DNA of 64,000 nt from Bilabrum cf. latius. Taxonomy: Eukaryota. The stretch spans positions 186,001 through 250,000 of the forward strand of contig OZ237773.1 of the NCBI GenBank assembly GCA_965178125.1. Reading direction: 5' to 3'. Under the pieces are notes generated by a model. That model was not told where the DNA came from and searched no databases. It saw nothing but the letters and a program-made list of their open reading frames with translations. This document shows, piece by piece, positions 1-64,000 of this stretch. Numbering within the stretch: the stretch's first letter is position 1; every line of letters begins with the position of its first letter. Position numbers and translations under genes: made by a program.

Positions 1-3000
1 TCTGCAGAAGAGCAGAACCACCCGAACTGGGTATCCCGCTTCGTTCTGACGCGCTGCCGTGCCCGCTCTTAGTCTGCCCTGCAGTATTGGATGGCTGGCC
101 AGCAGACTGCTTCTTTCGGGCTGCTCGCTATGCCGACTGATCCGATCCCGAGTCACCAGAGGGCAGCAGCCCGGCGGCAATGGCCAGCTGCAAAGCTGCA
201 AGCGATGCCAGGGCGATGACCTGCCTCGCGCTTGGCTGCTCCATTAAGCTACCAAGGGCATGACCCCCACCATCAGAGCCGAGTCCCTCTGGCGATGCCG
301 TCGGTGACACGCCAGCAAGCGGAGATGCTGCCATGGGACTTGACGAGATTCCAGGCCCAGGTTCCCCGCTTGCAAGCACCTGCATGCAGTCGGCTAGCTG
401 TGCCAATACACTGCCGATCGACGGGACTGGGTGCCTGCTTGCGGCACACGCCGCGGTTCCGAGGCTCGTCCATGGCATGCGGGAGGCAAGGAGTGCTCGC
501 TGGAGACCGTGTGACGAGTGACTTGGGTCTACCATGGAGGGGCCGATCGCGTCTCCGCAGGCGCGCGCAAATGCAGCAGTCTCCAGAGAATTGAGTCCAG
601 CCCACGGGGCACCAGCTGCGCCGCCACTTTCAAGAAGTTTCTCAGGAGTATCGGCCGATGCACCGTGCCCGCTAGCACTGCCCGGCTACTTCGAATGGGC
701 AGCACCACCGCCACCTACTTGGTACCGTGCGGCCAGCAAAGTCCTGTGCACCATCGCGGCTTTCTCCTGGGCCACCCGGTGCGACGAGTGCCGCGGTCCA
801 CCGGTGGATCGATCCGATCCCTGCGACCTAGCGGATGACGAACGGCCCATGCCCGAGCTGCTGGCGATCGCTCCAGCCCCTGCAGCACCACGTCTGCCCC
901 TAGCGGCCGAAGCGCTGTCGCTGTCGCTCGGCATAGACACTGACAACGATGAAGACGATCTGCCCATCGGTCCATCAGCAAATCTGATGGGGGCGTCAGA
1001 CTCCATGTCATTGTTAAGGTCTAGCCCGTGGCATGCCTCTAAACCGTGCAGCAGCACAAGCGCTATGCATCTGGGAGCTCCCTAGGTCTGGGCCGGCACT
1101 GAGCTCTGCTTGTTGGGCTCGTACGGCTGCAGCGCAAGCACCTGCAGCTTTGCAGGCCGGCCATCCGAAGCATGCGATTGAACTGCACCAGAATCGGCTC
1201 TTTCCATAGAAATCTGTCCTGCTGCTGCCTGGTAAGATGCTTCGCGACTCTCCGTCGTTCCCACGCCGCCAGGCAGGGATGCCTTCTCGCCGGCTGACCC
1301 GAGGAATGCGGCCGATGGCAGCATAGGCGACTGGCTTGAGCTGCTGCTATCAGCAGCATTCTGCAGGAGCACGCCTGCAGTGCACTGCTGAGCAATATGG
1401 CTGGTCCCAACTGTGACGCAGGCGGACCGCAGCAGCTGGCTGAACGCCTCCCTTGCCGCTCGACCGGTCGCAGTCTGTTCCTCCCGGGCAGCCGCTGCCA
1501 GCTGCGACCGCAAGCCGCCTCCAGCAGCTCCTGACACAGAGCCGATACTTGATAAAGCGCTACGATAAGGCTGATTGTTACTGGAATTAGCCGCTGCGGC
1601 GCCGTCACCGCCCTCACCATCCGCAGTGCCAGCGCCCTCACGATCGGATCGCACCGGTGCGGCCAGAGACAGCACAACGTCCTGAAGGACTGAGTCGTGG
1701 ACTCGGAGCGATATATCCATCGCCGGTGGTAGCAGGGTCAGAGTGGCTCCAGCCGCGTGGACTGACGCATTCCGCTACCCATACCCAAGCCACTGCCGCT
1801 GCCGCTGCCGCTGCCAGGATGCCTGAAGGTGACTGGCACCAAGCCATGCATCCACTACCCGACGCATCGACAAACTGACCGCCTCCATCGAGTTGCGACC
1901 AATCTGCGTAGAAGCACCTGCTTGCTCGCCTTCGGGCTCCCCAGACTGTTCCAAAGTGGCGTGCACGGAAGCAGCGAGGGACTGCTCCTGGGACCGAAGC
2001 AGCCACATCCAGCAGCTCACGCCGACAGCGTCTCCTGCAGACAGGTGTACCGGCCTGATGGCATCCGCGCAGGCCTGCAGGGTACCAGCAATGGAGCATG
2101 CTACCGTGTGCAGCGCCATGCAATGCAACTGTCCGGCAGAAGCCGGCCCTAGCACAGTCACAGGGGCCTTTCGCTCCTGCTGCGACGACAGCGCCGATCC
2201 GCCTGCTCCCAGCAATCCACCAGTGGATCGTAGATGACCCGCAGCTCCACCCGGGCGAACCCCTGGACGAACGTTCCTTGCTCCGATCCCGAGGCCCCCG
2301 AGCTGCCTCCCGCTCGTCCCGCTGGATGATGATGCGGCCCCGATCCCCAAACCGGTCTTTCTGGCTCCGAGTCCTGCTGCAGAGGGCGCTGCAGGCGTTG
2401 TCGCTGCGGACGCACCGCCTTGACGCCTGCCTATACGCGATAAAGTACCGGACGCACGTGGATTTCCGGCCTTTCCATGCGATGCAGCTGGTCCCGATCG
2501 TGGGTGTGAGGCTTGGCGGGAGCCAGCTGTGCCTGCAGCACCCCCATGCGATGCACCCGCAGCCTTTCCAGACAGTTTCCCTGCGCCATGCGAGGCGGCC
2601 GATCTATGGCTATTCTCCATAGCCACTTCGCTCGTCACACTAAGCAGGCAGGCGGCAGCATCCACGGCGGACTCTTCTGCGACCAGCCTCGTCATCCCGC
2701 CAAATGCTCCGATCAATCGGACAGCCGCTGGCCTGGACAGACACATCGGGAGCACCACGTCCTAGAATACATCTGCGCTGCCGATCACTGGCGCCGTCAT
2801 TTGGGAGGACGCACCGGCTCTATGCTTGGCGGCATTCGCACTGCTGCCGCTGGCTGGTCTCGCCTGTGCAGATGCCCTCCTGAGATAGGCAGACAGGGAC
2901 ATGCACTGGCCTGATAGCACTGCCCTGAGCGCGGGAAACTGCGCAAAGTCGTGGGCCAGGGGTACGGTGCCACGTCCTCGATCCGATCCTTGATCCGATC

Positions 3001-6000
3001 CTTGATCCGATCCTGAGGAGGGGGCGTTGCTTGAAGCGGACCCGCTGGTTCCAATAGCACGTCGCTTGCCAACAACGCTGCACCGCAGCAAATTGAACAG
3101 AACCAGCTCCGGCTCAGACAGTACCGTTTCGGGTTGTGATACTGAGCGGGACAGCTGGGTACTGCCACCTGCAGCGCCTGCAGCTTCTTCATCGGACTTG
3201 CCCTACTTAACCTTCGATGCTCCATGCTCGACATTTCTACCGTCCTCACTCGTTACACCGCTGGCTCGCATTAGTGGTGACGTGTCCAGAAGCAGCGCGC
3301 CGATGCACGTCGCGGGGTCCAGCACCGCAATGCGATGCGCCTCCAAGATCAGCCGCCTGCACTGTCCCACCGGCGGCCAGTCGCTCGGGCAGAGACCGGC
3401 AGACTCGAGATCGGCGTCTGTCGGAGTTCCGGTTTGCGAGCCCGGCCCTGCCTGCGCCGAAGGTGACGAGCTCGCGCCAGAATTCGGACTCTTCCGACCC
3501 CCCACGCCCGCGCCCGCACTCGTCACACCGGTGCCGGGCTTGCCCCCCCTCTGCCTCTGCCTCTGTGCCCTGGCCCGCTGCTGGGACGCCTGCTGCCTCG
3601 CCGACTGTGCCCGACGAACCCTCTCTTCCGCTTGTTCCCTGAGCACCGCGAAGAGCCGCCGCAGAAAACCGGAACAGCGCTCCCTGATTTCCCGGCCTGC
3701 CACCAAGTTGAGCCGCCGCGCCGCATGCCGCACCGTGCCGCGCGCATCGAGGCTCCTGCACACCGCCTGATGCAGGGTCGCTGTTCCCTGGCCCATGCGG
3801 TCCAGCAGTTCCGGTTTGTGCAGAACATCTGATCCGATCATCGTCTTCAGCTGCTTAAGGGCCCAAGGGGCTGAGGCCCCGGCGGTGCTCGCATCCTCTG
3901 TGGATGCACTCGTCACACCTCCACTCGTCACACCGGCCACGATCGTGTGGTCCTCTTCGTCGCTCGAACTGGCCATGGCCCCCGACAAGCCGCCGGTGGT
4001 CAATCCAGCTCCACCGGTGGATTGAGCGCGACCGGGCGCGGCCCATCCGAGAGCGGCCCCCAAACCAGACGCCCCCGTCACACTCGTCACGCCGCCACTC
4101 GTCACAGCACCCCACACGCCGCGCGCCAGCACCGCTCCCGCTTGCTGTGCGCAGTCACCGGCGTGCTTCAGCAGCATGTACCGCAGCGAGTCGCACAGGA
4201 GGATGCTGGAGGCGACTCTGACGCGCAACCGGCGGCTGCCGGCGAGCCGGGCTGCAGCGGCAGCGACTTCTGCGTTCTGTTCGGCCACGTCAGGAGCGGC
4301 TGGCTGCGACTCGGAGTCCGAAATACCGATGGGTGGCTCGTCCGAAAACGATGCCGCACGGGTTTCTGCCGCGGTTGCAACCGACCTCAGGAGGGAAACC
4401 GGAAGTAGAGTATCCACCGTTGCCTCCGACGCTGCCACGAGCACATCCGCGAACTGTCCGGGATTATTCCCGGAAATGCACACGCGAAGCACTCTGGAGG
4501 CCATGCGAGCCCCGCTGCTGGCCAGCAGTTTCCGCGCCTCCCCCAGAGCCGACTGCTGCTCCGCCTTGATGCTCAGTCCCATCACCTCCCGAAGGACCCT
4601 TTTATCGCTCCGGGTCGTCGAGGGCTCAGACTGTCTTGCCTCAGACAGTCCTACGACCTTGCCGCCTTCACGTTCGCCGTGGTCCGCGCCGTTGGACATG
4701 CTCGGTTGCGCGGCGCTAGCGGCACTCGCGGAACCGTCGGCCGGCCCCACATGCTCACTGGACAGCGCGGTACTTGTAGCTGCGGAACCATTGCAACCAT
4801 GCGCGGCGCCGCGAGGTAACCCTGCCTACTGCTCCAGAGCCGCGTACAGCTCCAGCGCACTCGTCACACCACCCAACGCTCCCGCTCCCGCTCCGGATCC
4901 GCCGAGCGAAGAGAGGGCCGTGGACTGCGCCACCGGAGACGAGGACAGCGACGGCGATGGCGACGGCATGGCGGACTAGGACGAGGACGAGGACGAGGAC
5001 AAATGCGCACGGTCCGTGGTGCTGGCTACGCCAGCCAGACCGGAACCATGCTCCAGGGCGCCCACGGTACCATCATGCAATGCACCCATGCCGGCGCTGC
5101 CACCCGGCTCGCCTGCTCGTCGCCGGTTGGCAGAGACTAGCTCCCGAGCTACTGCTTGGAGCAACTGCCTGGCGGAAACCGACGGCTGCCCGGACTCATT
5201 CAGTGCCAGCTACATGATGGGACCAGCTGCAGCTCTGGCCACCCCGCAAGTGGCCAAACTAGCGAGCGTGAGTACCAATGGAGTGAGTCCGATCGTGCCA
5301 GGGCTCGGCAGCATCGCACTCGTCATACCGCTGATCTCCTCCGCGGTGCGCAGGGTGAGGGCATCATCTGAGCCGGCAAGGAGCAATTGCGCGGCGCTGG
5401 GAAAAACGGAACCGCTTTCCTCCGCATGCCGCCGGACCGTCGCGAGGATGGAATCCAAGTACATTTCCCGGAATGCTCGCCGAGCTTTCTGCAGCGCTGC
5501 CCGCGCCGCGGCTCTCGGCACACGCGGGTCATCCGTGCGGCGACCCGTCGACGCAGCGGAACCTCGATCCGCCTGCTGCGCGGCGCCGGCGGACTCGTTG
5601 GCTGCTTCCCGAGCCAGGTGCTGCAGCAGCACCAACACCGCGGCGTCTCCAGCGGCGCGCTCGTGGCTGCCGCGCGGCGCCCCCGGTTCCGCAAACGCGT
5701 CTTCCGGAATGGGCTCACGCGGTGAAATATCCGATTCAATCGGTGGATCGCTGCTGCTCGGCTAGTTCCGGTTTGATGTCCTCCTTCTCTTGGCCGGACG
5801 CGGGGCATCGCCACCTTGGCTGCCCCCATCTGAATCTCCATTCCCGCTTTCACTGCCATGGCTAGCGTCGTAGCTGCTGCTTCTGCTTTTCGCGCTGGCT
5901 TTCTTGCTTTTACTGGTACTGGGTGCTGCTGCTCGCCGGCGAGCGAGTGAGTCTGACCGGGCCGCCCGTGAGGACACCCGCTCCCCCCGAGCACTTGCTC

Positions 6001-6103: not shown

Positions 6104-6135
<32 letters not shown>

Positions 6136-10351: not shown

Positions 10352-13300
10352 TCATGACTGCTTGTCACCATCGACTACTGCACTCCCAACCGACGTTTTC
10401 CTGCTCCACTCCCGCAGCATCGACAAACGCCTCTCGAGGCTGCGAATGGCTGGATCGCTCATCTCCCTTGCCTCTCGTGTTGTCGTGCCAGTGCCGTGCG
10501 AGTGGCTCCAGCCGAATCCATCCGTGAGCGAGCTTCTAGTGAAAGCTTGGCCCCCCAGAGTATCTCTGCTGTCCGATGGGGGCGTGCTGCTGGACGCCAA
10601 CCCGCTTTGCAAGCGTCTGCTGCTGCTTCTGCTTGCACCCCCTTCAGCACCCCCTTCTGCCTTGCCTTTCCTATTCTATATCCTCCTAGCCTTGGCCTCC
10701 TTCCTCCGCTCTTTTGCCAAGCGAATTTCCTTCCTGCGCTCGCTCCAGGCGAGAAATGAATCGCGGGAGGACTCCCGGAACGGCAACATTAGGTCAAACC
10801 CGTCACTTGTGTCACTTGCCCTGGGACCCGAGGACCCGGGCCCGGAACCTTCTCCCAATCCCTATGCAAAATCGCTGCCAGCCTCGCTCTGCTCCGATTT
10901 CCTTGGAGACCTGACTTCACCTGTGCTCTTTGATCCACTGGTTGCGGCGGCAGCGGCACCGCCTCTTGTAAATCCACTTGCGCCATCAGCGGCAGCTTGC
11001 GGCATGCCACCATGCCGCTTGGATACGACGGCACTGCGCCAAGTCCTGGGCGCCTCTCTCGCTGGAGATAATACGCCTGGCTCACGGGGGGAAGTCTTGA
11101 TCTTCCCTTGTTCAGGCGCGGCATCTGCAGCTTGCTCCCGGTCTGAATCTGGGGACTGCTAACGACGCCTCGCTGGCCTCTCGTTTTCTTTTTTCTTGCC
11201 ACTGCTACCGCTGCCGCTGCCACTTCCGCTGCTGCTTTGCAACGCGCTCTTACCCGGCGCCTTGGGGACTTTGCCCTTGCTTCCTGAGCTGCTGCTGGCG
11301 CCTTTCGATGAACCAACCGACACGTGTCTCACGATGGCTTGAGGTGACCCGTGGTGCTTACCATCTGACGAGCCACCAGCATGCTCATCATTGCCATCGT
11401 GCACTCCTTTGTCCTGACCCCCGCTGCCGCTGCTTGATGTCCCACCGCTCCCTGCACCAAACACCGGGCCTCGAGTTTCGCTGCTCTGCTCCCGGTACAG
11501 GGCCACAGGACTGCCGACAGCAACGTGTCGTTGCCGTGCCGCATCGCTGTCCCGGGTCGATGAAGATGACGACAATCCGGAGCTGGGATGTCCCTGTCCT
11601 TGCCCGTGACCGCGCGTGTTTCTGTCAAAGCATGGCTGCGAGTGACCGTGCGTGCCTTGTAAGGACGCGAGCTCAGTCAAGGAGGTCCCGACGGGCGCAG
11701 TGGCGGCGCCGGGCGAGTCACTGCCCTCCCCGGCTGCCACTGCAAGCGAGTCGGAGTCTAGGTAAACTGGCCGCATCACGTGCCGTGTTGCTGCCAGCGG
11801 TGGGTTGTGGGATCTTGCTCCAGCGGTCGCCGGTTTCTGTCTCGAGGAGTGCCTCCTTGGCCGTGATGACTGTACGAGACTGGGCGTGGAACCGGTGTCA
11901 CCTGATCTACCCGAGGCAGCGCGTGTCTTCTCTGCCGCGCCAGTGCCACCATCATCCCCATCTCCGTTGTCACTTGCCCCTGTCCCAATGCTTCCCCCCC
12001 ATGTTTGTAAGCTGTCGCCGGTGCCCGCGCTCTGGCCCCATGTTCGCCCTTTGCGTCCCTTGAGTGCCCAACGGCTTAGTGCCCGCCGGCGAGCGCCGGT
12101 CTGATCCGGCTCGATCACCGGCACGCCACCGACCACCTGCCGCGAGGCCCAGTCCGATGAGCCCATGTTGGATGTGGTAGCATTACCCACCATTGTTCCC
12201 TGTGCGACGCTATCGCTGAACCACCTCTTGCCGACCCCAGCATGGTCGCCATAGTCGTCTTCCTCGTCAGCGTCAGCGACTGGACTCACCCACCGCTGGC
12301 CACCCTCACTCGTCACACCATGAACCTCGACCGAAGCCGAATCGCCGGGCAGCAAGCCGTGGGCCACCCCGATGGTGTGCGGCCGGCGCCGGTGCTGCCC
12401 TCGTGCCCGGTCCCGAGGCACGAGCCACGCGCGCGGCTTGCGCACTCGGCTGGGGCCAGGGACAGGGCTTGCCCGCGCGTTGTTATCATGGCTGCTGATG
12501 CCTGCCCCCCGAATCGATCCAGAGCCGGAATGCGCGTCCTGACCTGCGGCGCTGCTGCCCTGCACGGTGGAGGAGGCGGGGCGACGCCTGGACGGCCGGT
12601 CGCTCTCACTGCTTTGTTCCCTAGACCCGTGCCGAGTTCCTGCGGCCAGCAGACCCGCGAGATGGCGGGATCGCTGACATGACCCGCAGGAGGGGCCCCG
12701 CTGCGATCTTGGAGGCTGCTGCAGGTGCGGGTGCAGGTGCGGGTGGGACGGATCTGCAACGGTCTGGGACCGCTGGAGCAGTGCTCTCGCACGGGCGCCG
12801 GGGTGGGCTTGGCCGAGTTGGGCTCGCAGATTTGCACGTCCATATGCTTGAATCTGGGCTTGCGTATTTCCTTGCGCAGTGGAATGTCCCTACTGCAACT
12901 GCTGCTGCATGGCGCTCGGCATGGGCGCCTTCATTCCGATCTTGAAGATTGACCTGCTCTCATGGAGGATCTCGCGGGCCTTGAGCTCTCCGCTGCTTGT
13001 TGTGGTGCTGCCCGTGCTGGTAGTGTCTCCGTTGTATTCACGTCGGTTGGTATCGCTGTCTGGATTCGAGCTGATCCGGCTCCTAGAGCGCACTGTCGGA
13101 TGGTCGTACAGCTGTCCAGACTTGCGATGCACCACATCATTGAGAGCCTTGTCAGCGGCGAGGGCAACTTTTGCTCTATCGCGGCGTGCTCGTTCGCTTG
13201 TTTCTGCTGGTGCACTTGATATGCGGGGGGAGCGGATGCGCCCCGCCTTCCGCTTTTTCCCGCTGTTACTGCTAGCAGTAATGTCGCCCGTCAGGTCTCT

Positions 13301-16053: not shown

Positions 16054-19000
16054 TCAATCCACCGCCACTGTAGCTGCCTCCCGGAAGAACATCAGCCTCT
16101 CCCTTCGTACGTACCCCTCCACTGCCTCCACCTGCTTCCAGCGCTAGCTGAAGCTTGAACCCTCCATGGCACGAGCCAACTCCCGCATGCGATCGAACAC
16201 GCCTTTGGCCACGAATGCCTCGCGCATCATCCTGTCGAAGGACATGCTGAGGAACAAGGCGCTCGTCGAGTATGGGTCCTTCTTCCATTTGGTGACCACG
16301 GGCCCGCCCCGGCCGTCCCACATGACCCGTCGCCTAGTGAGCCTCATTCCCTCCGCCAGCTCGGCCGCCACCATGGTCAACGCCTGGTCCTCGTCCTCGC
16401 CTGCCCGGCACCCGGCAAGCCCGCCCGACTTTGTCCGCCGGAGGCACCGCGCGAGATACTGCGCCACCCCAGCGACGAGCATCATGAAGATCTTCTCGGA
16501 CAGATAAGGCATCCTCGTTGTCGTGGACAGGCACACAATCGTGGGGAATCGCACCAGCCGACCCGCTCTGCGGAAGCTCAGCCCGTCCGACTGCACCTGC
16601 TGCCAGCGGATCGCAGTGTAGACCTGATGCCCGATGGCAGGGTACAGCAACTGCCCAACGCGGCCTGCTTCTGACACAAATTTAGCATCTCTTTTGGAGA
16701 CGAGCGGCTTGGCTGATGCCGCAACCGCAGCCGGTGATGTGCCCGCGGCTGCAACAGCAGCAGCAGCAGCAGCAGCCCCAGAGGCCCTGCCCCTCTTGCC
16801 TCGCTTTCCCTTCCTCCTCTTCGCCTTGCTACTGCTGGGGGTGGTAGCAGTAGCAGCCGCGTTGCCCTTGATTGAGGCAGCCAGCGGCGTGGTACCGGCT
16901 GTTACCGCCTTGTCACCGTCCTCTGATGGGTCATGACCGGCTGCCACATCGCGAGCGTACTTCACGAGACTGTCCTGCTCGGCCCGTATGCTGACCAATG
17001 CACCGAGCCATTCCTGCACCAGCGGCACAGGCACAGGATGACCGTCATCCGCCGGTTGTGCGATGCAGATGGCGTCTTTTGTGCTGAGGCCGCGCATCTG
17101 CAGCACTATCTCCTGTGGAGCAACGATAGGCGTGCCCATCGCCACGTGCCTGTCGCTGACGAGGGTTGCGGCCTGACGAGTGCCGTTCTCGCCGAGAAAC
17201 GCGCCTGATCCGATGCCTCGAGAGAGTGCCAGGACCGCCGCACCCACCTGTTTCATCATCTTGGTGGTCCTGCGTCGAGGGACGACAACGGTCGCGCGCA
17301 GCATCCTGGGATGCTTCTGTAGGGCATCGGCCAGGTCGGGCAAGCCGCTGAGATCGGGAGCACCTTTGTTGTTGAAGCTCAAGTCGATCTTGTTCATGAA
17401 TCGCATGGACCAGTTGCTGCGCACACCCTCGGCAAGGTGCTCGATGAATGCCCGCGCGTCGGCCGACTGCAGCCCCAGCGTGTTGGTCTCGAGCGTTTCC
17501 AGATTTGCGGATTTCTTGAGGCTCGCTGCCAGCTGCTCAACCCCCTTTGTTCCCTGAGGATACCACGTGAAGTGCTGAAGTGGGCCGCATTCTCCCACCC
17601 CTTCGCACAGCAGCGCGGCAGCTTCGTCAAGCTTGGCTCTGTCCCTGGGGCTGATGTCGTGATAGACCACCGACGGGCGCGCGATGGCCATGCCCGGGCC
17701 CTGACCGCCGACTTGCCTGGGCAGCATTGCAACGCAGGCAAGCTTCGTGACGGACACGTCGCCTGTAAGGAGCGCTCGGCCAACGGCTTTGGCCACCTCA
17801 GGGTGGCAGGGACACTCCATGGCGAAGCTCTCCAGGTCGCACGACTGGGAGGACAGCAGCAGCCGCTCTATGGGCCCTGCGCATGCCGGCAGGACATACT
17901 GCTTCAGGTGCAACCTGTCTGCAAGATACGCTCGGATCGTCACTTCGCAAAGCCCCTTCCTCCCTGATACTGAATCGATCAGTTGGGGCAGCTGGTAGTT
18001 GAAGGGGGACAGCAGCACGTGCCGAGCCACTGACCCTGCCAGCGCCTGGGCCACTGGGTCAGTCCAGCAAGGCGGTCTATGGCTGCCATCCGAGGATGCT
18101 GCAGCGGGGTATGAAGCGCTGCGATCTCCGTCTTCCACGCTGCCCTATGTGACGAGTGCAGCAGCTCCTACGCTGGCCTTGGCAGCAGCAGGGCCAGGCC
18201 TCGCCCAGTCCGTGGGTGACTCCGTGCCGGCACCAGATGCCCCACCGTCAGTGGAAAGGTCCTCTTTGCTGTACACGGGCCAGCTCTTGCGAGCGTGAAC
18301 GCAGGAAATGTCGACCTTGAGCTCGCCGCTGGGCTGGAACAACCGGATGAGCTCGGCAGCGAATGCCCTGCTCCCGGGGCCTTGCTCCCTACCGGCGATC
18401 TGCAGCGCATTGACGCCCTGCGGTGCCTCCTCTATGTCCAATTTCATGTCGTGGACCTGTCCGATCCAGTTGAAAGAGTCCATGTTGGTGCCCTGCTCAA
18501 GCGCCCGCAGGACCGTTTTGATGCACGGGTGCACCAGCTCCGGCGGCGGGCTGTCGATGAGCAGCGTGGACAGCTTGGGCAGTGTGACGAGTGCTTTGAG
18601 CAGGTGCCTGCACATGGCCTCTGCGATGCCAGTCGTCATCGGAGATTTCGGCTCGTCGCTGCTGGGGTTCGGCTCGGCGTAACCGATGGAGATCACAAGC
18701 AGCGGCACAGCGGCGTCTGCCATCCGGCTCAGTATGAGGCCGATCTCCCGGGTCTCGATGCACTGGCCGTGGATTCGAAACCTTTGGAGGCGCTTCATTT
18801 TGTGGAAGGCGGGAAGCAGCCGAAGAGCCGCCGCTCGCTCGAATTTCGCATCCGCCATTTCGAGCTGCATGATGTCGTCTGCCTCCTGCTCCATCGCTCG
18901 GCGCAGCAGATCGGTAGCGGTTCGATTCCACGCACCGATTGTATCGATACCTGCATATATCGATCCGTCCTCTGTCTGGACGGGGGCAATCTGTGCTATG

Positions 19001-33656: not shown

Positions 33657-33690
<34 letters not shown>

Positions 33691-36758: not shown

Positions 36759-37776
36759 CAGTGCCTCCGGTGCGACCGGTTCCAACCAAGGTGTATCACA
36801 CGATGGTGCGCTCCGGATCCACTCGAAGGCAGCCCGTAGCCTCTCGGTCGCAATGGGCGGCCATCTCAGCGATGCACGAACAGGCAATGCTCTCGAGCAA
36901 CGGCGGTACGCGAGCAAAGATACAGCCTCTAATGGGATCATGGGCGCGGCATCGAGTGAAGTATTTCGGAAGGATGGCACTACTCATACCGAGCCAGGTG
37001 CATTCGGGAATTCACATGGTGGTGCCAGGCCTAGCACAGACGGCCAGGCACACATCCCAGGGACAGAGTAGGCAAGCGACACCGACTCAGTATTCGAGGG
37101 ACCTGCAGTAGACAACAACCGGCCCGAGGTTGGCACTGACCCCCTCCGGCACCCCTGTCCCATCCTGCGCGTGCCCCGGCCCCACGTTGACCTGGCCCCT
37201 CTGGACGTTTCGGCTGCTGGTGCCTTGGATGCGCTCCAGCAAGCTGACTCGCTGGCGCTGCACCGTGTGACGGTATGCGATTACGGTATGACGGCCATGC
37301 AGAGGGACTGGTGGGCGGCTGCTACAGGTGTGACGAGTGATGGACCGCTGTGCGAGGCCGTGTCACTAGCAAGGCCTGACCCGATCAGGATCGCTCGGGG
37401 CTGTGGGGATGCGGACGACGGCCCTGGTGATGTTGGGCACACAAACGGTACCGACGTTGGAGTAATTGATAGCCGCGATCAATCAGGTCGATCATCCGGC
37501 ATAGATCGGCAAGGCCCCTCCACTGGACCGCCAGATGAGCAGCAGCGTGACAATCGTCATCTTCGGCCAAGCGAAGCAGGCCTTGGCAGAGGTCCGGGTC
37601 AAGTAAACCACTCCAGTCCATGCGCCGCACCTGAAGATTAGGTTGCCATGGATGGGTCCGAAGATTCAAATGCCGGTAGCAGTGATTCAGACATAGCCAG
37701 TCGGGATTGTGCTGATCCTGCGTCACCTGTCCAAGCAGGTGAGCGAGCTGCTGGTCAGTCACAGCAATCACCAGGT

Positions 37777-45066: not shown

Positions 45067-47082
45067 TCATTTAGCGGGGTAGGAGAACTCCAGCGGTTGC
45101 CCCGCGTCCTTGAGCGCCTGCCGCAGCTCCTTCGCCCTCCCGTCCTCCCCAAGCACTTGCTCGGTGCTCGCCCACCCGTTGCTCACCATCAGCCCCGCAG
45201 CCACGCCGGCGGCCTGTCCCGTGCTCCACTCCTCGGGATGCAGCCTCGTGGCGGCGTTGGCCTTGTACGATTGCGCCATGCCTTTGCCCGCCACCATCGC
45301 ATTCGTCACACCGCCGATGGTCAGCGCCCGGTAGGGGATGTAGTAGGGCAGCACGGTGTGGTTCGCAATGTAGGGAGGAATGTTCGCTCCGCAGTCCACG
45401 GCGTGGATGTCGTCATTGTACTGACCGATCGCGATCGTGTCCTCAAACCGGAACCCCTTGCCGCCCTCGGAGGCGGGGGGTGCCACCGGTTGCAGCGGGG
45501 CTCCGCTGTCGTCACACCGGCCCGCGAGGTGGCACCACAGCAGCCGGAAATTATTTATTCCGGTCACCACCCGCCTGGAGCCCCGCAGATACGGAAACTT
45601 CACGAGGCCGGTCTACGTGCCCGGCATGTCCCTCCTCATCTGGAGGCGCCGCTGCTCGCTCGTCGTGTTCTGCGACAGGGCCCACCAGTAGGACCCGTAG
45701 GCCCGCTGTTCCGCGCCCCGGAGTGACGTCAGGTTGAATCCGCCGGCCCATGACCCGGACGATGCTTGTTCCCTGGTTGATCCGATCCCAAGGAACAGCT
45801 GCGCCGTGTCATAGTCGTTGCCTCCGGCCCAGTTCTGCTGCACGCTGTCGCCGGGGAACACGCTCGCAGGGGGGATCCATCCGAGGTGTGACGAGTGGTT
45901 CGTATCGTGTGACGAGTGCGATTTGGGACCCCCGTACACGTTCCGCCTGTACATCCAGATCTGCGCCCAGGTGAAGTTGTGTTGCCACGCGAAGGGTGGG
46001 TTTGCCTCGCTGGGCTTGAGCCCTTTCGGAGGCTACCACTCCCCCGGGCCCGGGTCGGGCTCGTTGCTCGCCAGGTACCTCATGAAGTACGTGATGGTGG
46101 CTGCCTGCCCGCACTGGTCCAAGTAGGCGCATGGGGGCTGCCCTGAGCCAGGGAGGCCGCACGTCTCGTCGGGTGTCTCGATGCCGAAGCTCCAGTCGAT
46201 CAGGGGAGTGCTTCTGGCAGACGGTGCATGACCATGCTTGGCTTTTCCGTTGCGGTGGTGGTCGCTTGCTCTGGGTGACGGGTTTTCACCGGCCATGGCA
46301 GCAGTTTGCTCGCTTTCCGAAGTGGCTTGCGGGGCTCGTTTGGATATACCCGATGGGGCAAATGTTCGGCTGCCTGCCAGTGGGACGTGCATGGCGCCAC
46401 CGAGAGCAAGCACGTCGCCAAGTTCGGTGGCTTCGATCAGCGCAGTGAAATTGCGGAAGGTGATCTGCCTCTTGGTGGCTAGCGAGCTGTTGCTCGGGCT
46501 GTACCAGTCCTCGAATTGCGACGAAAGAAGCTGACTCCACTGATTCGAAGCATTACGAGGCGTTCGCTGGATAGCATCCAGCTATGATATGCGATACTGC
46601 GAGCCGCTCTGAGCCCCGTTCGGTTCACCCGCAGCGATCTTGGTTGGTACGGTATTCCAGTACACTCGCAGGTGATCAGCGTGTCCCGCGATGTGCTGCT
46701 GAACAAAGCTTTCCTAAGCAATTACAGGATCGAAGCATAGGTCAGATACCCAACAGTGCCCGGGGTTTCCGAAGTCAAACAGCTCCCATAGATACTGGAA
46801 CGACGTTGGGAGATTGGATCTATGGCTCATGTAGCTGCCGAAATCGATTGCAGGAACACTATTTAGCTAGCCACCTGCCCAGTCGTACGGCTCGAGCAGA
46901 CATGCTGTAGTATTCCTCCCATCCGGGTGTGTTGGAAACCTCTGCCGGAAGAACTCGGCTGTTGCAAACGAGGTGGAGAGTGCGGCCAAGCTGCCACCGG
47001 CAATCACCACATCGCAATCTGTGACTATTTCGCTTGACGCTGTGGTTTGAAAGACAGCCAACAACACTAGAAATTGAGCCAT
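45067..47082 (-). CDS. Secreted FAD-dependent oxidoreductase (FAD_oxidored/PF12831-like, ~671 aa)
   Basis: Signal peptide. DVVIAGGSLAA, LLEPYDWAGG[Q]L..VPAIDFG, IEATELGD, PYYIPYRAL, NAMVAGK, RLHPEEWSTGQAAG. 5 TAG; TGA. Confidence 0.88.
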
Positions 47083-53289: not shown

Positions 53290-54953
<1,664 letters not shown>

Positions 54954-55294: not shown

Positions 55295-57745
55295 TCAAGC
55301 ACCCACTCGATTGATGCCAGGGGACCATTCGATGATCTCCTCGCAGCTCTCCGGGTGCAAAGGACACAGGCTGTTGCCCCCGATGCTCACTCCCTCGTTG
55401 AGCCCCTGCACCGTCAAGTTGGTCGCAAGGCTCATCGCGTTCCCCACCACGCTGACCCCAAGATTGTAGGGGATCCCGTCAGGGGCCCCCTGTGCCCCGC
55501 TCGTGATCACCTGGACCCCTGTTGCGTTCGCCATTGTGTTCCTGTACACCTGAAACCTGTGCAGGGGCTGCTGTCCCCCTTGGTAGGTCCTTCCCCACAC
55601 GTTGATGCCTCCGGGGTGGATGTGCTCCGATTGGAGCATCCGGGTGAGGGTATTATCCGCCATGATCACGTTGTTTCCAGTACCGAAGATCTGCAGCGTC
55701 GTGCCATCACTATACCTGTTTCCGGCGAGGACAACCCTGCCTTTGTAGGGAACAATCGAGACGAACACGTCCTTGTAGTGGTCGGCCGCATCTCCCATCA
55801 GAGCCAGCATGTATGTCTACAACTGCATCACGCCGCTAGCGGAATCGAACCAGCGACCCGTGCCCCATGAACCGGCCGCCGTCCCATTCATCACGATGAA
55901 CGCAATGCCGTTCACCCCGTTGGGATACGCCCCCGGATTTGCGGCCGACTTGTTCGCAATCGTCACACGGAACGTACCCGGGTCATAGTCGGCAATTCGT
56001 CCGGAATACAGCCCGCCCCCCCCGTCAGAGGTGAAGGTCTCCTGTCTCTCCACCGTCGCCTCCAGGTTGCCCTCGTCTGTTCCCCGGAGCATCGCCAGGT
56101 GCTGCATGCGGAGGGGCGTGCTTCCGCCCAGCGAGTTGAAGCCCTGCCCCCCCGTCGTGTTCCCTACAGTGTGCATGGCCAAGCCGTCCGTGATCACCTT
56201 GAACGTGTTCTCGCCGCAGTACCCCTGGCACGTGGTTGTGACCGACACGTTCTCAATCGTCACACCACGCGCGTTCTGGAGGAACAAGGCCACCTGGTTG
56301 CTCCAGCCCACCCCGGCGCATTCGCCCTCCCGCGACAGGACCGAGTCGGCGATGCGGAATCCACCGGTGGATTGGATCCGGAGCAGGTTGGCGATCTAGC
56401 TGTCGCCGCCCGCAGCGGCAGCAGGGGCGTTGACCTTGACCGTCAAGCCGCGGATGGAAGTCTCATTCCCTGTGACGAGTGCGGCGATACCAGCCGGTGA
56501 GTCGGCGAGCAGCGTGAAATTCTCCGCCCTCGAGCTGGTTCCGCTGAGGTGCAAAAGCGCGGCGCCGCTGGGCCCTGGAGAGCTGTTGCTGCGCCACGCG
56601 AGGGCACTCGATGACGATGCACCACCCGTGCCTAGCAGCGTGACGTTGGCGGGGACAGTCGCATTGGATCCATCGGGCATTTCAAAGGAATGATCGGCAG
56701 CCAGAATGACGTCAGCACCCCCGATAGCAGAATACTTCTGCGCGAATTGCAGCGCCGACTGTACGTCTCCCTTGAACTGCTCCAGCACGTCGATCTGGGG
56801 ACGGTGCTGGGAGGCGGGGCGGGGTGCTAGTGGAATGAGTTGCGTGCCGTTTGCATCGGATACAAGTGGCCCCGTGGCTTCCACCAGGTCCATACCGAAG
56901 ATCCTGTTGCTGACCGACATGTACGTCTCGCGGCCCAGGACCTCGTTGAACTTGGCCTGCAGCTGGGGGCTCCATTGTGCTCCCAAATCCACGATCAGGT
57001 CAAAGCACGTAGAGGATGTAGCGTTCAGATTGGCGATCATGCCAGAGTCCCACCAAAGCTGCACCTGCGCCGCTGGATGCGCCACGCCTGTCTCCGGGGA
57101 ATGAGCCGGGATGCACGTCACGGCCCCTCCATCATTTGCACCGCTACTTTCGAATGCGAGGGAGCGGCCGACCACGCGAATCCAGCCATTTGGACCCGCT
57201 GTAAACCCGTTTACGCCTCTATCACCTAACGCGAACCATGGATCGGGAGCGTTGGTCCAGGAAGGCCGCGTCCTGGGCGGGTCGAAGCGAGCAGCGAGCC
57301 GATCCGCTCGCTTTCCCACGAGCTCGACGTCATCCGCTGCGACTGAACACCCGACAACGGCCGACGAGCCGGCAGACATTCTATAGGATGTATTTTCTGC
57401 ACTCGTCCCGCTGATCTTGTCGATGCTCGAAAGGCTGCAGCTGGGCGCCACAGCATAGAACTACAACGGGGTGTTCTGCCAGTGCAACGATCCAGGTACG
57501 AGAACTGTTGCCGCGTGGTCCGTTCTATTCTCAAGAACTGTGACATCCACGCAACTAGCGTTCAATAGACCGAAATCAGGGCACGCTACGATCCTGGAGT
57601 CCAGCAAGCCCCTGCCCAGCAGCTGCACTGGATCTTTCGGTCCTGATGGGGAGGAAGCCCACTGCACGTTTGGGCTCGATGCACCCATTGTACGTGTCAT
57701 TAACGCATATACAGTAATGAGTACAGTCACCATGGTCAGCCTCAT
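55295..57745 (-). CDS. Secreted protein with probable right-handed beta-helix (pectate-lyase-like) C-terminal half
   Basis: Signal peptide. ORFs 57461-57850, 56396-57451, 55817-56311 and 55295-55810 are joined by 3 TAG. Repeated IxN/xxN strands (VPANVTLLG, VTIENVSV, NNVIMADNT); TGA. Confidence 0.7.
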
Positions 57746-58006
57746 CTTGTACCTCTGTGGGAAATGCCACGGAAATAATCTAGAGCTTGCAGATTCGGAA
57801 TGTTGCAGCCACACGATGTGGCCGAGCATCATGCTGTGCAACAGGCGCAAGCTGAAGAAATGTATGATTGAATTTAATAGCTTCGAGAGAGAGCTTATAG
57901 TTCAGCACCATCCCGTGGGCTGCCGACGGTGTCGGGCCAGGGGTGTCGGCTGCACCAAGACGGTGGTAGTTGTGGTGGCATGGCCATCTGCCTCGAGTCG
58001 CACTCG

Positions 58007-60120
58007 TCACACACCGTGCCCCGACAAGCGCCTGCTGCGCCGCAACCCAGAGGCAGGGCTCGCGGACCCCTTCCGGCCCCTTGAAGCACTCGTCACACCA
58101 CCGCCAGTGCGCTTGGCGGCCGATCGGGTCAGCGGCGGGCTCACCGCGCTGCCCAGGGGGGCGCGGACCTCGCTCGTCACACCACCTCGACTGGACCTTC
58201 GCTTCTGCGAGGACGAGGTCGAGGAGCTTCGGCGGAAACTGGAGGTGCCCGGCGCCGCGCCCATCTCGAACTGCCTGGTTCCGTCGTCGGCGCGACCGGC
58301 AGACCCCGCCCCGCTCGCAGGCCCTGACAAGGTTCCGCTGCTGCGCGGCGCCGCGGGCAGCACGCCCATGCCCTTGAGCGCCGATGCCACCTTGTTCTCC
58401 GACTTGGCCATGCCCTCCCGCAGCCTCAGGTGCCAGTCCTCCACAGCCACGAGGAGGCCCCTCAGCGACTCGTCCATCTCGGCGCACATGGCCTCGTGCT
58501 CCTGCCGGGCCGCCCGACGGGCGCCGCGCAGCTCCTCCAGCTGCGCGGCGCCGTCCTGCGCGTCTCTCCCCAGGGCCTGTGCCCGGTTCCGCAGTGTCTC
58601 AAGCTCGTCCCTCTGTGCTGCGAGCGCCCTGTCGCTTGCAGCCCGCTTCACCTCCGCGCTCGACCTGAACTCCCTGATCTTGGTCTCCATGCGCCGCTCC
58701 TGCCTCTGCACGTGTGACGAGTGCGTCTCGGCCTCGGTGCTCTCGGCTTTCAGCCGCTCCAGCTCCCCCACCCTCTCCCTCACCTCCTCCGCCGCCTCCT
58801 GCAGCCTCGCCAGCTCGGCCCTCGCCCTGCTCATGAGCCCCGAGGCCTCCTTGACCTCACCCTCGGCCCTCTGCACCACCTCTAGGCGGACGGAGGCCTC
58901 CCTCCTCGCCCTCTCGGCATCGTGCAATGCACCCTGGGCCTCCTCCAGCGCGCGGGAGGCCGCGTCCAGGCGAGCCCTCACCCCGTCCGCGTCCGCCACG
59001 ACACCCTCCCTCAGCTTGTCGGATTCCCCCTGTGCCGTCAGGGACCGGAACTGCGCGGCAGCCGTCCGGTCCTTGGCCTCCTGCTTTTTCTTCTTCTGCC
59101 CGTGCGTGTGCGCCCTGAGCTTGGCCTGGGTCGCGTTGAGCTCCTCGATTTCTGCCTCGAGGGCCCCGCACTCGCGCCTCACCGCGTCCAGCTCGGGTGC
59201 CTCTGACTCCCTAGCCGCCTTGGCCGCTGCCACCTGTCGGCGGAGCTCGTCCCGCTCTGCCTCCGCGGCGGCGTGTTCCTCCATGAGCTTGCTCTGCGGG
59301 AAGGGGTGTGACGAGTGGTATTGGTGGTGGGGGTGGGTCTCGCATGACCACATGTGCACGCGGCGCAATGGCCCGTCTCGTCTTGTCTCGGCCATGAGCT
59401 TGAGAAGGCAAGCAGCGCGCGCAGCATGCAAGACAGGTTTTACATTGCTCTTCCCCGAAATTGTGGTACTACAGCAAAGACACAGCTGACGATTACAGCA
59501 TTCGAGACACTATGGAGAATCCACTGCCTCACCGTGAGCTCGGAGAAACCCTGGTACTTCTTAAGGCGGTCTTCCCTGAACTTGTGAAAGTTAATAATAG
59601 CAGAAAGATTCCTCCGGACCCGCCTCGGGTCTGGTTTCGCGAGGTCCTTCAGCTAGAAGCCGTCGCGCACGCCCGCAGCCACAAGCAATTTGTCCCTGCG
59701 AAAACGGCAAGGGGAAGCTGGCATTACACCATGCCTTGGAGAACCCATATAATCATGCATTGCAATGTAACACAATCCTCACATGCCTCGGATAAAATGT
59801 AGAGCTGGGATACTTTCGTCGTGAAGCTCCTGGAACCGAAACGCCTCCAAGCCGTAAAATTTGGGCTGGGAGAGCTCATCCTTGCTCATGTCCAGACAAT
59901 CAACTAGCAAGGATTCATACACGTGCCTCAGCACGTCCGGCCGGCACTTCGTGAGGTCAGCCTCGGTAATGTGAATTCGAAGGTCCGAAAGGCAACTGAT
60001 GATCTCAGAGTTTTTCAGGATGGGGAAGGAGAAAGTCTCCTTTCGCTTTGTCATTGATCGTCCTCCAACACTAGCCCTCCCGGAAACACCGAACACGCTG
60101 CTTCCTGCCATCGCCGCCAT
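58007..60120 (-). CDS. NUF2: Kinetochore protein NUF2; exons ~60120-59783, 59695-59533, 59293-58007
   Basis: FSFPILKNSEIISCL, ELHDESI, GVRDGF[Q]LKDLAKPDPRRVRRNLSAIINFHKFRE, then a long coiled coil. Two GT-AG introns; TGA at 58007. Start could also be 60111 or 60054. Confidence 0.9.
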
Positions 60121-61036: not shown

Positions 61037-64000
61037 ATGCAGTACAACGACGAACCGCAGGGAATGTTCGGCGACGACGACGGAGCGGCCGGTGGCCGCC
61101 GCAACCGGCACCCGGGCGGCGGGCAGGCCGCCCCCCAGCACCGGGCCTTCGGGAACCAGGCGAGCGAGGAGCTGGGCAGCATCGAGGACGATGAGGACCT
61201 CATCAACGCAGAGGAGGGCGAGCTGGAAGGGGAGCGGCTCCTGGGAGACTTCGGGGAGGAGACATTCCTCTGGGCCAACGCGGACCCGTTCGAGCCTCAG
61301 GGTGCACTGCACGGTGATGTGCGGACCCTCCAGTTCCAGGACCCCGAGGACGAGGAGGCCTACCAGCGTTGGACCTTGGAGAGGTATGCCCCCCTGGTGC
61401 AGATGGCGACCGGGATGATGGCCGTGTTCGCGCTGGCGTCCGTGTTCTCTGGCGGGGCCGGGCCGCTTGCGGAACCGATCGTTGTGGCGGTGGCTGCGGT
61501 TGGCCGGATGGTGCCAGCCGTTGTGCTGGTGCTGCTGGCCTTCACTCGGGGGAACATCGGGGTGAGCTGTTCCGCGATGACGTGGCACTACGTCACCGCC
61601 TTCCTCGGTCTGATCATCGTGATGACGGTGCACTTGGAGGACATTTACTGCGGCGAGGTGGCGGACGTAGGGGACACACAGCTGGACCCGGCCCCCAGCG
61701 GGTGCAGGGCATTGGGGGGCGCGGGCAGGGCCACCGCGGGGGGGGGGTCCACCCCCGCCCTGGGGGCAATGCTGACGATCGTGCTCCCGTTCTGGCTGTT
61801 CTTTGGTCTCAAGACGGGGTGGATGCTGGGCGTGGCGGTCGGGGTGATTGCGACCGCCATGCAGGTGGGCATGGTCGCAAGGCTGGTGCGGCCGGAAGAG
61901 GCGTGGATGGTCCCCATGATGAGCGTCATAGCACTCGTCACAGCATCCATGGGCGCCTACCTCCACGAGAAAGCGGAGAGGAGCAGCTTGCGAGAGATGG
62001 TGCAGCACAGGAGGAGACTCCAGTCGGTGGCCGACGCGCGCCTCCCCGACCTTGTCAGGGAACAGCTGGGGGCACAGACCCACGACACGCACAAGCGGAT
62101 CCCAGTGGTGGTCGCAGAGTGCCCCGTGGACCGCAATATGTCCGTTGGGCCCATCACCTTCACATCACGGAGGGGCGCCAAGGACCTGTTCGGTCGTGAG
62201 GCAGACGACCTCATGCAGGCGAAGCTGACGGATGAAATCCTCTGCGCGCCCGACGACCGGGCAAGGCTCGACCACGAGCTGCGAACGTTCGTCGAGCAGC
62301 AGGTGAACCTCCTGATCGCGCCTCACCACGTGCAGGCAGGCGGGGGCATCCTCCGCACCTGCTTTCGGGTCAGGCGCCGGCTGAGGCACTCGACGCAGAG
62401 GGGCTTCGGTTTTGCGCTCATGGACGGCGATGCGCCTGGCCTGGCCATGGTGCCAGAGCTGTAGGTGCCCACCGGCAACGACGGTACCAACGCCCCCGCC
62501 TATGAGAGGGTGGAGATCCTGGGGCGGGACGGGCAGCCCCCCCGTGACCTAAACACGAGGGGCAGGAGCGTCAATGTGCCGGGGACGGCGGAGGTCAACG
62601 ACGCCGAACAAACCGGTTTCCTGTGGGTGGAGATGACGGCGCACCTGGTCGCAAGGCGAGGGAACACAGCGTTCTCTCTCCACTTCTCGCTTCGGGAGGC
62701 AGGCTCGGAGATATGCGGGTGGAGGCCCAAGCTCGGCATGGAGGTGGAGGACATCCGGAGGCGGTACGGGCTGGCCGACGGGCCGCATCTCGATGGGGGG
62801 GGCTCCACCCCCGGTGGGGGCAGGAAGGGGTCTTCGCTCACCTCGGGGGCGAGGGGTGTTGCGGGAGGTTCCTCAGGGGATCGAGCCTCAACCCGGAGCG
62901 GGGCCTCGGGAGCACCGGGGAAGGGTTCCGGTTCCGCAAGCGGCGCCGCGCAGAGCCAGGTCACCCGGGACCTGGAGGTTGCACGGCGCCGCGACGGAAC
63001 CACCGGCGGGCCTAGCAGGTACCACACCACGGACGGACACACGACCGCGCTCAGCTCACGCACCGCGAGCCTGGACGGCGGGACGGCGGCGGGCCCCGGC
63101 GGCGTCACCGCACTCGTCATACAGCCGGTACCCCTCGTGGATCCCGCCCACGACAAGGCACGAGCGGTTGCCAGCACCTTCGCGATCGCGTACACCCGCG
63201 CTGCGGTGGCCGCGGCCGAAGACTCCAGGGCTCGAGCCGCCGAGGCCATGGAGGAGGTTGCAACCGCGAGCGCGGAGATGGCCTGCTCCCTGGCCATGCT
63301 GCGAGAGGCCATGGAGGAGATCGATGGTGTGACGAGTGCGGGGGCGCGCCGCTCGGGGAACAAGCGCGACAAGACGGAGGTGATCATCCCCATCCCCCCC
63401 TCCTCCTCCTCGTCTTCCTCGGGCGGGCGGGCTTCCGCTCTGATCGAGAGCGACGCGGGGGATTCGTCCGAGTCCAGCGGAACCGTTCCCAGCGGCGCCG
63501 CGCAGGGGCTAGGCACGCGCAGGAAGCTCGAGTCGAGCACGGTGCCGGTGCAAAGGGGCAAGCTCGGGGCCGGTCGCAGGGGCCAGCAGAGGTCGTCTGC
63601 GTCTGCCAGCGGGTACACCGTGGGCAGCACGGCGGGGACCGGGCCCGGGTGGATCGTCCCGGGGGGAGGGTCCTCGGCTGCGGCTCGGCTGGCCGCCGCT
63701 GCGGACCAGGCTAGCCTGCGGAACCTCAGCTGGGCGCGCGGCGCCTACTGGGGGGTGCCCCTGGGGGGCGCCTCGGGGGGTCCCAAGTGGGACGGGGACA
63801 GGAGGCCCGAATGGAAGCGCCAGCGAACGTTCGCTCTGGGGTTGCTCGAGCCCTCGGAGTCCCCGAGCTGGGACTACGAAGACCCCACAGCGGGGGAGGG
63901 TACCCCGGGGGATGGCCTACAGGGGTCTGGAGGGGACGGGGCGCGGCCAAAGGTCGAGGTGGCGCTCGGGGGGATCGGATCTGCAAGCGAACGGAGCGGT
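61037..64000 (+). CDS. Multi-pass membrane protein with a PAS/PAC-like cytoplasmic region (runs off window end)
   Basis: ~6 TM helices, then ITFTSR..AKDLFG...DL......CAPDDR and FLWVEMTAHL. TAG at 62462 is read through and the frame stays open to the window end. Confidence 0.7.

Follow-up and report, generated by a model that had tools for sequence, protein, structure and literature searches.

A short DNA word, GTGACGAGTG, occurs in 31 exact copies in a 64,000-nt stretch of the genome of the GC-rich single-celled eukaryote Bilabrum cf. latius (contig OZ237773.1 of assembly GCA_965178125.1, positions 186,001 to 250,000; hereafter the window), where dinucleotide-preserving shuffles gave a mean of 0.15 copies and a maximum of 2. 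The signal belongs to the DNA rather than to the encoded peptides and is independent of frame and strand, and the word is not an isolated element but one of at least six enriched words. We propose, at a chance that we would put just under even, that GGT-GTGACGAGTG-C(G), as its graded consensus reads, is a lineage-specific, hyper-abundant word of double-stranded DNA, of the same type as the uptake signal sequences (USS) and DNA uptake sequences (DUS) or the highly iterated palindrome HIP1, which would be held at its density by a sequence-specific agent. The data comprise the window and one further contig of 2.4 kb (L043), and the gene models in the window are our own approximations.

The copies are non-palindromic (the word differs from its own reverse complement), and 14 of them lie on the plus strand and 17 on the minus strand, giving a density of about one per 2 kb for a word of 10-15 nt. 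The first-pass annotation, which was made from the letters alone, had reported at least 31 copies against an expectation below one, on both strands and usually extended beyond the 10-mer; all three points were reproduced, with the copies at the same coordinates. An order-4 Markov model, which was trained on the window itself and was thus already informed by the word's own pentamers, still gave an expectation of 0.75, and the word is by far the most over-represented 10-mer of the window, simple CAG-type repeats excepted. The flanks are graded: the bases 5' of the core are, from the nearest outwards, T in 28, G in 24 and G in 20 of the 31 copies, the base on the 3' side is C in 19, and the full 13-mer GGTGTGACGAGTG is present in 15. 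When a 14-mer with up to three mismatches was allowed, 53 sites were found against 8.5 expected. One-mismatch copies number 18, against a chance expectation of 9.6, beside the 31 exact ones, and CpG decay was ruled out as the chief source of variants, as only two of the 18 carry a CpG to TpG change. Two such GTGATGAGTG variants, at approximately 21468-21477 and 22046-22055, lie 21-24 nt from an exact copy, and both extend to an identical AACACTCATCACACC.

The conclusion that the signal resides in the DNA and alters protein sequences is supported by null models at the codon level, which were run on 23 open reading frames (ORFs; 24,282 nt) holding 18 copies. Shuffling of synonymous codons with each protein kept gave an expectation of 0.36 copies (maximum 3), shuffling of codon order 0.054 (maximum 1), and a dicodon Markov chain trained on the same 23 ORFs 1.35 (maximum 6). 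Amino-acid- and dicodon-preserving shuffles had been singled out in the first-pass annotation as decisive for its claim of a DNA-level signal strong enough to change proteins, and the enrichment persists in both. The Nuf2 homologue by itself holds the word in four ways, namely as sense GVTS (58087), as antisense THSSH (58714), across the stop codon (58001) and in a probable intron (59308). In other well-supported coding frames, GVTS is read at 3517-4096, 12307, 37330, 53637 and 63329, ALVT at 18584, 56472 and 61932, and HSSH at 45888 and 45909; by a hand tally against the coding strand, there are about 12 sense sites in some eight genes and about 6-8 antisense sites in some 5-6 genes. In addition, 11 of the 14 VTS tripeptides are spelled GTGACGAGT and two more are one base off, despite the use in the word of AGT, the rarest of the six Ser codons (59 of 760), which argues that the DNA word is primary and the peptides are secondary.

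Placement of the word is equally distinctive. All 31 copies, and all 13 independent clusters, lie where the GC content in 300 nt is at least 0.613, and none of either is found in the 46% of the window where it is below 0.60, so that the absence of copies from AT-richer gaps noted at first is real. Base composition does not explain this placement, since the word itself is 60% GC. The copy-bearing GC-rich sequence encodes mostly Gly/Ala/Ser/Arg-rich, poorly conserved, low-complexity protein regions, and the word-bearing ORFs stand out in the GC content of second codon positions (GC2), not of third positions (GC3). No copy was found in the seven genes with Pfam-matched kinase, ARM, desaturase, MIP, Brix, WbsX-like and ArfGap products; in the FAD_oxidored gene, the Pfam-matched exon has none, and the two copies lie in an upstream ORF (45616-46032) that has no Pfam match. 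The first-pass statement that all copies lie in coding sequence plus one intron stands in part. A conservative codon score places 14 of the 31 in windows that it calls coding with confidence, and 59308 is probably an intronic copy; the coding status of the cluster at 21282-22032 and of the copies at 511, 4858, 18149 and 22900 is unsettled (nine of these copies fall within 21282-22900). Restriction to gene bodies is therefore better stated as restriction to the GC-richest, mostly low-complexity and poorly conserved parts.

Comparison with orthologous proteins, made at the protein level only, indicated turnover of the copies. P0003, which is 85% identical to the product of ORF 3206-4825, has VTS at five of six sites and AVTR at the sixth. 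P0001, which is 94-96% identical over the Nuf2 part, keeps THSSH and one GGVTSE and lacks the copy at 58087, with a three-residue gap exactly there. P0002 (72-77% identical, Nuf2) has TQSAH in place of THSSH at equal length within a conserved domain, and both tail copies are absent; P0004 (39-48% identical) has AVRSRGVASG and GGSWSSGGTSS, again at equal length, in place of AVTSGGVTSV and AGVTSGGVTSA. In the closest relative, represented by P0003 and P0001, 24 of 28 word-encoded residues are kept versus 98 of 116 flanking residues, and in P0002 the figures are 3 of 10 versus 24 of 48. These alignments indicate that copies are gained and lost between related species by substitution and small in-frame indels. 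The check that had been suggested at the outset, whether the word arises by insertion or by substitution, thus yielded both, with an indel at 58087 and substitutions relative to P0002 and P0004; as one copy lies in a length-conserved domain where the orthologue differs by substitutions only, templated insertion is not the sole route.

At least five further words are enriched. They share the regions of the main word, and some of them occur within conserved coding sequence. These include GCGCGGCGCC (15 sites versus 0.78 expected), GATCCGATCC (8 versus 0.28), the palindrome GGTTGCAACC (8 versus 0.10), the palindromic 12-mer TCCACCGGTGGA (four sites), the 9-mer CAGGGAACA (12 observed) and GCGGAACC (18 observed). 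A general excess of palindromes is modest (106 10-mers versus 77) and mostly due to the specific words, and it was rejected as an explanation. Some sites of the two palindromes lie within the desaturase and aquaporin coding sequences. The 15 sites of GCGCGGCGCC (4801-63745) nearly always have GCGGAACC no more than about 25 nt away, to the left or the right and in both orientations. Some of them are in Nuf2 coding sequence and others in possible untranslated regions, and the two words look like a two-part module. Also within the Nuf2 coding sequence, a 33-nt near-perfect palindrome at 58520-58552 consists of two inverted GCGCGGCGCC with arms of about 13 nt around GGAGGA and encodes DGAAQLEELRGA.

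Outside the window, a metagenome scan for paired cores fetched 120 loci, of which only one, the contig L043 (2,399 nt, 58% GC), resembles the window in its words, and apart from the words the two are unalignable. In L043, long low-complexity ORFs hold the main word six times, each time read as GVTS, and four other words of the vocabulary are present as well. As the sole support from outside the window, this contig suggests that the vocabulary may belong to a genome or lineage and not to one locus. A scan of viral contigs for the 15-mer returned 105 loci, of which 99 had the ascertained match only and six had two 10-mers, which is the chance level.

How such a word could be maintained can be outlined as follows. 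An abundant sequence-specific factor, for instance an enzyme of repair or recombination or else a binding protein, would favor the word in GC-rich gene bodies. Point substitutions, together with small indels or duplications that keep the frame, would continually create new copies, and these would persist where GVTSA, HSSH or ALVT is tolerated, that is, mostly in poorly conserved low-complexity protein regions; single sites would then turn over, with the overall density maintained. In its widest form, to which we give a somewhat lower chance than to the statement about the word alone, the proposal is that this nuclear genome keeps a private vocabulary (the 10-15-mer, GCGCGGCGCC with GCGGAACC, GGTTGCAACC, TCCACCGGTGGA and others) through a gene-body reader or word-biased repair, which would rewrite proteins and recruit a rare codon; it would be a eukaryotic counterpart of USS/DUS, HIP1 or Chi, and possibly a mark of self-DNA. 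The observations establish that the signal is one of the DNA, independent of frame and strand, that its placement is restricted, that copies turn over and that a vocabulary exists; the reader or bias, its nature and the genome-wide extent of the word are what we infer from them.

Several points weigh against this proposal. We know of no eukaryotic mechanism of such a type, and no reader, methyltransferase or repair enzyme was identified, although no search aimed at a reader gene was made. Residues encoded by the word show no more conservation than those flanking them, and none of the copies is present in the more distant orthologues P0002 and P0004; evidence for selection on individual sites is therefore lacking. 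A binding site would be expected more usually in promoters, yet the AT-richer spacers hold none; in a comparison with promoter and enhancer sites, at least 14 copies are confidently coding, although those at 21282-22032 and 4858 may be non-coding. Word density tracks GC2, and thus amino-acid composition, rather than GC3, for which reason a simple link to GC-biased gene conversion was dropped. The data cover 64 kb plus 2.4 kb, with orthologues compared as proteins, and much of what is seen would follow just as well from a purely mutational origin with purifying filtering.

That mutational account is the main rival. In it, the words are a by-product or a selfish drive without function, written by a short-patch process and cleared from constrained sequence by purifying selection; we regard it as unlikely, though as a serious contender. 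Candidate processes would be mismatch repair with a sequence bias, templated insertion at breaks or ectopic micro-conversion from one copy to another. It accords well with the location of copies in poorly conserved, indel-prone, low-complexity regions and their absence from the seven Pfam-matched genes, with the rarity in confident coding sequence of frames that give a stop or Cys/Trp, and with the lack of extra positional conservation. The three-residue indel that falls exactly at the 58087 copy, the sharing of regions by several different words and the close pairing of copies are of the same tenor. However, random insertion should also reach AT-richer introns and spacers, where none of the 31 copies lies, and in two comparisons, that of the 58714 copy and that of the pairs set against P0004, the orthologue has the same length and differs by substitutions rather than by an insertion. 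Moreover, the ratio of exact to one-mismatch copies, about 30 to about 8 after subtraction of chance, calls for copies that either arose very recently or are still being corrected, yet a relative whose protein is only 85% identical shares most of them.

The remaining explanations fare far worse. GVTS(A/D) could be a peptide module, functional or merely an expanding short repeat, that was spread by local duplication with the same codons kept. Sense VTS is the commonest reading, with the word encoding most instances of the tripeptide (11 of 14); the window has tandem 15-nt units, L043 has four GVTSD units, and of seven close same-strand spacings six are multiples of three. However, HSSH and ALVT are read antisense in well-supported coding frames (18584, 45888, 45909, 58714 and 61932) with coding scores of 11-30, one copy supplies a stop codon and another lies in a probable intron, and the 13 clusters are unlinked and lack shared flanks. 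The antisense copies in coding sequence largely refute the module, and we consider it very improbable.

An element acting in RNA, for example one bound by a small RNA or an RNA-binding protein, or a signal resembling a splice site or branch point, was weighed with the help of contigs from four public runs, to which positions 3001-23000 were aligned: X1 (study P1), which is possibly the source sample and was therefore left uncounted, X5 (P2), X6 (P3) and X9 (P4). The depth of the X6 and X9 contigs is very uneven, and at their joints segments of 91, 196 and 212 nt with minus-strand GT..AG ends are missing; on these grounds our guess is that they behave like RNA. All copies in 3001-23000 are within this RNA-like coverage, the copy at 59308 lies 14 nt upstream of a putative 3' splice site, and the sense word has GT-rich strings that resemble 5' splice sites. 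On the other hand, the word is about as frequent in sense as in antisense by the hand tally, and none of the three joint-supported introns contains a copy. An X6 contig over 3001-4581 runs gapless and unspliced through five sense copies, which rules out a role as 5' splice site, and a role as branch point was ruled out because only the 59308 copy is at a plausible distance from a splice acceptor. There is thus only a slight chance that the word acts in RNA; origin from a known RNA was likewise dismissed, as the sole Rfam match in the window, a 5S rRNA, lacks the word.

It is just as doubtful that the copies are the remnant of a repeat family, be it an introner, a telomere-like repeat, a (GTGACGA)n satellite that has decayed or a miniature transposon. 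The core amounts to 1.43 repeats of the heptamer GTGACGA, and arrays of exactly this unit are found in many metagenome contigs; indeed, nearly all of the 120 loci fetched are tandem (GTGACGA)n or (GTGACAA)n arrays, which come from varied habitats with GC contents of 0.34-0.75 and often have inverted arrays nearby (e.g., L114, L084, L106, L047 and L089). However, 119 of the 120 loci lack the other words of the window, the core is preceded by GGT and not by CGA, and no heptamer runs were seen in the flanks of the copies, and we therefore treat the arrays as unrelated. As the first-pass annotation had stated, the copies have neither shared flanks nor target-site duplications: nothing is shared beyond about 15 nt among the 31, and flanking repeats of 3 nt (at most two copies) or 4-6 nt (at most one) are at the chance level, which argues against a transposon family such as miniature inverted-repeat elements or introners. 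No longer repeat family was seen in 20800-23000. A micro- or minisatellite was excluded because no head-to-tail arrays exist beyond three tandem-like pairs (3907/3922, 4081/4096 and the 48-nt repeat at 21585/21633), the other copies being solitary or separated by unlike spacers.

Close pairs are nevertheless a feature of the distribution, and those described earlier were all found at their spacings: 3907/3922 and 4081/4096 are 15 bp apart, 45888/45909 are 21 bp apart, and the copies at 21872/21897 form an inverted pair. Among 49 sites, nine neighbor distances are 60 nt or less where we estimate about two if sites were evenly spread, and the sites are also clustered regionally. Not all pairs are fresh tandem duplications, since four of the five flanking positions of the 4081/4096 pair differ (4 of 15 overall) with both cores intact, and the spacers of the 45888/45909 pair are unrelated. 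The densest cluster, at 21282-22032, holds eight exact copies and the two GTGATGAGTG variants in 775 nt, including a 48-nt tandem repeat and the inverted pair.

An artefact of assembly, adapters or contamination, which the first-pass annotation had named as a possible refutation, has practically no chance of being correct, as an X5 contig from another study covers 7181-21596 with no differing letter, the contigs of two further studies (X6 and X9) cover their copies unchanged, and orthologous proteins of other assemblies encode the same peptides. The contigs break at the 48-nt tandem repeat (21557-21652), as is usual for assemblers at repeats. In addition, many contigs from elsewhere match only up to word positions, with loose ends at 4857 and 12320, a hint that the genome holds many more copies. 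At 4945-5000, a coding repeat of (GACGAG)n drew very many partial contig matches in all four runs (bin depth 198-809) and on this evidence is a common low-complexity motif in the organism; GACGAG is also the center of the word.

The window, with a GC content of about 60%, is eukaryotic nuclear DNA, as is evident from the GT..AG introns in the RNA-like contigs, the 5S rRNA gene, and the Nuf2, ArfGap and Brix genes. The introns are standard: they open with GTGAGT or GTTAGT and close with CAG. Besides a split fatty-acid desaturase, an aquaporin (MIP) and a Brix-domain protein, the genes encode a kinase, an armadillo-repeat (ARM) protein, a WbsX-like protein, an ArfGap, an FAD_oxidored protein and the kinetochore protein Nuf2 (C-terminal half and N-terminal domain), whose homologue spans 58007-60180 on the minus strand (Pfam PF18595 and PF03800). 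A lone 5S rRNA gene (47202-47320, plus strand; Rfam RF00001, 81 bits) lies between the FAD-oxidoreductase and Brix-domain genes; it was the only match in an Rfam search of the window, and the window has no tRNAs. Searches for homologues of ORF 61016-62461 and for matches of ORF 45616-46032 among PDB sequences returned none, and an Atlas search gave generic aquaporin clusters as its sole matches. On the minus strand, the lone in-frame TAG between two ORFs lies in a 27-nt stretch (18145-18171) that starts with GT, ends with AG and has the word inside; it could be a tiny intron, a true stop between two genes, or chance.

Table 1. Positions of the exact copies of the main word and of the two palindromic words in the window, with strand and the reading or surroundings of each site.
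Feature	Position	Strand	Reading or context
GTGACGAGTG	511..520	+	Antisense to stop-free frame 131-685(-), read HSSH; coding status unsettled
GTGACGAGTG	3517..3526	-	Sense GVTSA, ORF 3206-4825(-); VTS retained in P0003
GTGACGAGTG	3907..3916	-	Sense VTS, unit 2 of 15-nt pair; retained in P0003
GTGACGAGTG	3922..3931	-	Sense VTS, unit 1 of 15-nt pair; retained in P0003
GTGACGAGTG	4081..4090	-	Sense VTS, 15-nt pair with differing flanks; retained in P0003
GTGACGAGTG	4096..4105	-	Sense AVTS; AVTR in P0003
GTGACGAGTG	4858..4867	-	Directly upstream of stop-free frame 3206-4825(-); probably untranslated or upstream exon
GTGACGAGTG	12307..12316	-	Sense VTS, low-complexity ORF 11162-12889(-)
GTGACGAGTG	18149..18158	+	Antisense ALVT; 1 base from lone in-frame TAG between ORFs 18148-19065 and 16147-18144 (-)
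GTGACGAGTG	18584..18593	+	Antisense ALVT, ORF 18148-19065(-); coding score 13.7-14.3
GTGACGAGTG	21282..21291	+	Opens dense cluster; coding status unsettled
GTGACGAGTG	21445..21454	-	In cluster; GTGATGAGTG variant 24 nt away
GTGACGAGTG	21585..21594	-	Unit 1 of 48-nt tandem repeat (21557-21652)
GTGACGAGTG	21633..21642	-	Unit 2 of 48-nt tandem repeat (21557-21652)
GTGACGAGTG	21872..21881	+	Inverted pair, left arm
GTGACGAGTG	21897..21906	-	Inverted pair, right arm
GTGACGAGTG	21968..21977	+	In cluster
GTGACGAGTG	22023..22032	-	In cluster; GTGATGAGTG variant 21 nt away
GTGACGAGTG	22900..22909	-	Sense HVTSA near C-terminal end, ORF 22883-23917(-); coding status unsettled
GTGACGAGTG	33562..33571	+	Sense GVTSA, low-complexity ORF 32509-34239(+)
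GTGACGAGTG	37330..37339	+	Sense GVTSD, ORF 37072-37638(+)
GTGACGAGTG	45888..45897	+	Antisense HSSH, ORF 45616-46032(-), upstream of FAD_oxidored exon
GTGACGAGTG	45909..45918	+	Antisense HSSH; 21 nt from 45888 copy, spacers unlike, so no simple tandem duplication
GTGACGAGTG	53637..53646	-	Sense GVTSA, stop-free minus frame downstream of ArfGap ORF; one-mismatch copy 28 nt away
GTGACGAGTG	56472..56481	+	Antisense ALVT, ORF 56399-57460(-)
GTGACGAGTG	58001..58010	-	Supplies the Nuf2 stop codon through its internal TGA; 3 of 3 orthologues end in GV
GTGACGAGTG	58087..58096	-	Sense GVTS, Nuf2 C-terminal tail; P0001 without copy (3-residue indel)
GTGACGAGTG	58714..58723	+	Antisense THSSH within Nuf2_DHR10-like domain; TQSAH in P0002, equal length
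GTGACGAGTG	59308..59317	+	Antisense, 14 nt 5' of putative Nuf2 3' splice site (..cccgcag/AGC); probably intronic
GTGACGAGTG	61932..61941	-	Antisense ALVT, hydrophobic stretch, ORF 61016-62461(+); coding score 17-19
GTGACGAGTG	63329..63338	+	Sense GVTSA, ORF 62465-63997(+); coding score 20
GGTTGCAACC	4373, 8964, 22610, 43957, 48662, 53848, 54016, 63256		
TCCACCGGTGGA	798, 4011, 36620, 56361		

Among known systems, the closest likeness is to the USS of Pasteurellaceae and the DUS of Neisseriaceae. For USS in genes, Findlay and Redfield (2009; PMC2817400) described inflated tripeptides, frame preferences and location at poorly conserved positions of poorly conserved proteins, and explained the fact that USS-encoded residues are no better conserved by continual creation under drive combined with a selection filter at the protein level. 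Like these sequences, the present word is short and non-palindromic, has graded flanks, is hyper-abundant on both strands and seems to accumulate by point mutation plus drive; the likeness extends to occurrence in coding regions in several frames, inflated tripeptides, poorly conserved positions and encoded residues without extra conservation. It differs in that the host is a eukaryote with spliceosomal introns rather than a naturally competent bacterium, that several words coexist, and that it avoids AT-richer spacers. Many DUS and USS lie in intergenic terminators.

Similarly, HIP1 (GCGATCGC) of cyanobacteria is, according to Elhai (2015; PMC4390886), hyper-abundant in genes, frame-independent and possibly tied to sequence-specific DNA enzymes. 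The present word shares with HIP1, as described there, a hyper-abundance in genes regardless of frame, and the window also has the enriched palindromes GGTTGCAACC (eight sites) and TCCACCGGTGGA (four sites), whereas the main word is itself non-palindromic, is longer (10-15 nt) and resides in a eukaryotic nucleus. By analogy, the word most likely works in the manner of USS/DUS and HIP1, although it belongs to neither class. Chi (GCTGGTGG in Escherichia coli; RecBCD/AddAB signals) is likewise an over-represented non-palindromic word that is tolerated inside genes. It is read on DNA by a repair machine, and it is about 8 nt long, far less enriched and oriented with replication, RecBCD being bacterial. 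The word also contains the TGACG half-site of bZIP sites of the cAMP response element (CRE)/M26 type (ATGACGT). M26, a recombination hotspot of fission yeast, lies within a coding region and works as double-stranded DNA whichever way it is oriented; however, M26-type sites are not known to be hyper-abundant and our word is not the CRE palindrome, and hotspot motifs are expected to erode rather than to accumulate. No report of a comparable word in eukaryotic nuclear protein-coding genes was found in the open-access literature at the abstract level, and the literal words were met there only within primers and unrelated sequences.

Genome words such as USS/DUS, HIP1 and Chi are known from bacteria, and they reveal machines that read the whole chromosome. 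If the present word is genome-wide, an abundant factor or a repair bias would be shaping thousands of sites and altering proteins, and the 15-mer (GGTGTGACGAGTGCG) would be a ready bait for such a factor. For annotation and evolutionary studies in this lineage, recurrent GVTS, HSSH and ALVT would then have to be regarded as by-products of a DNA word and not as protein motifs.

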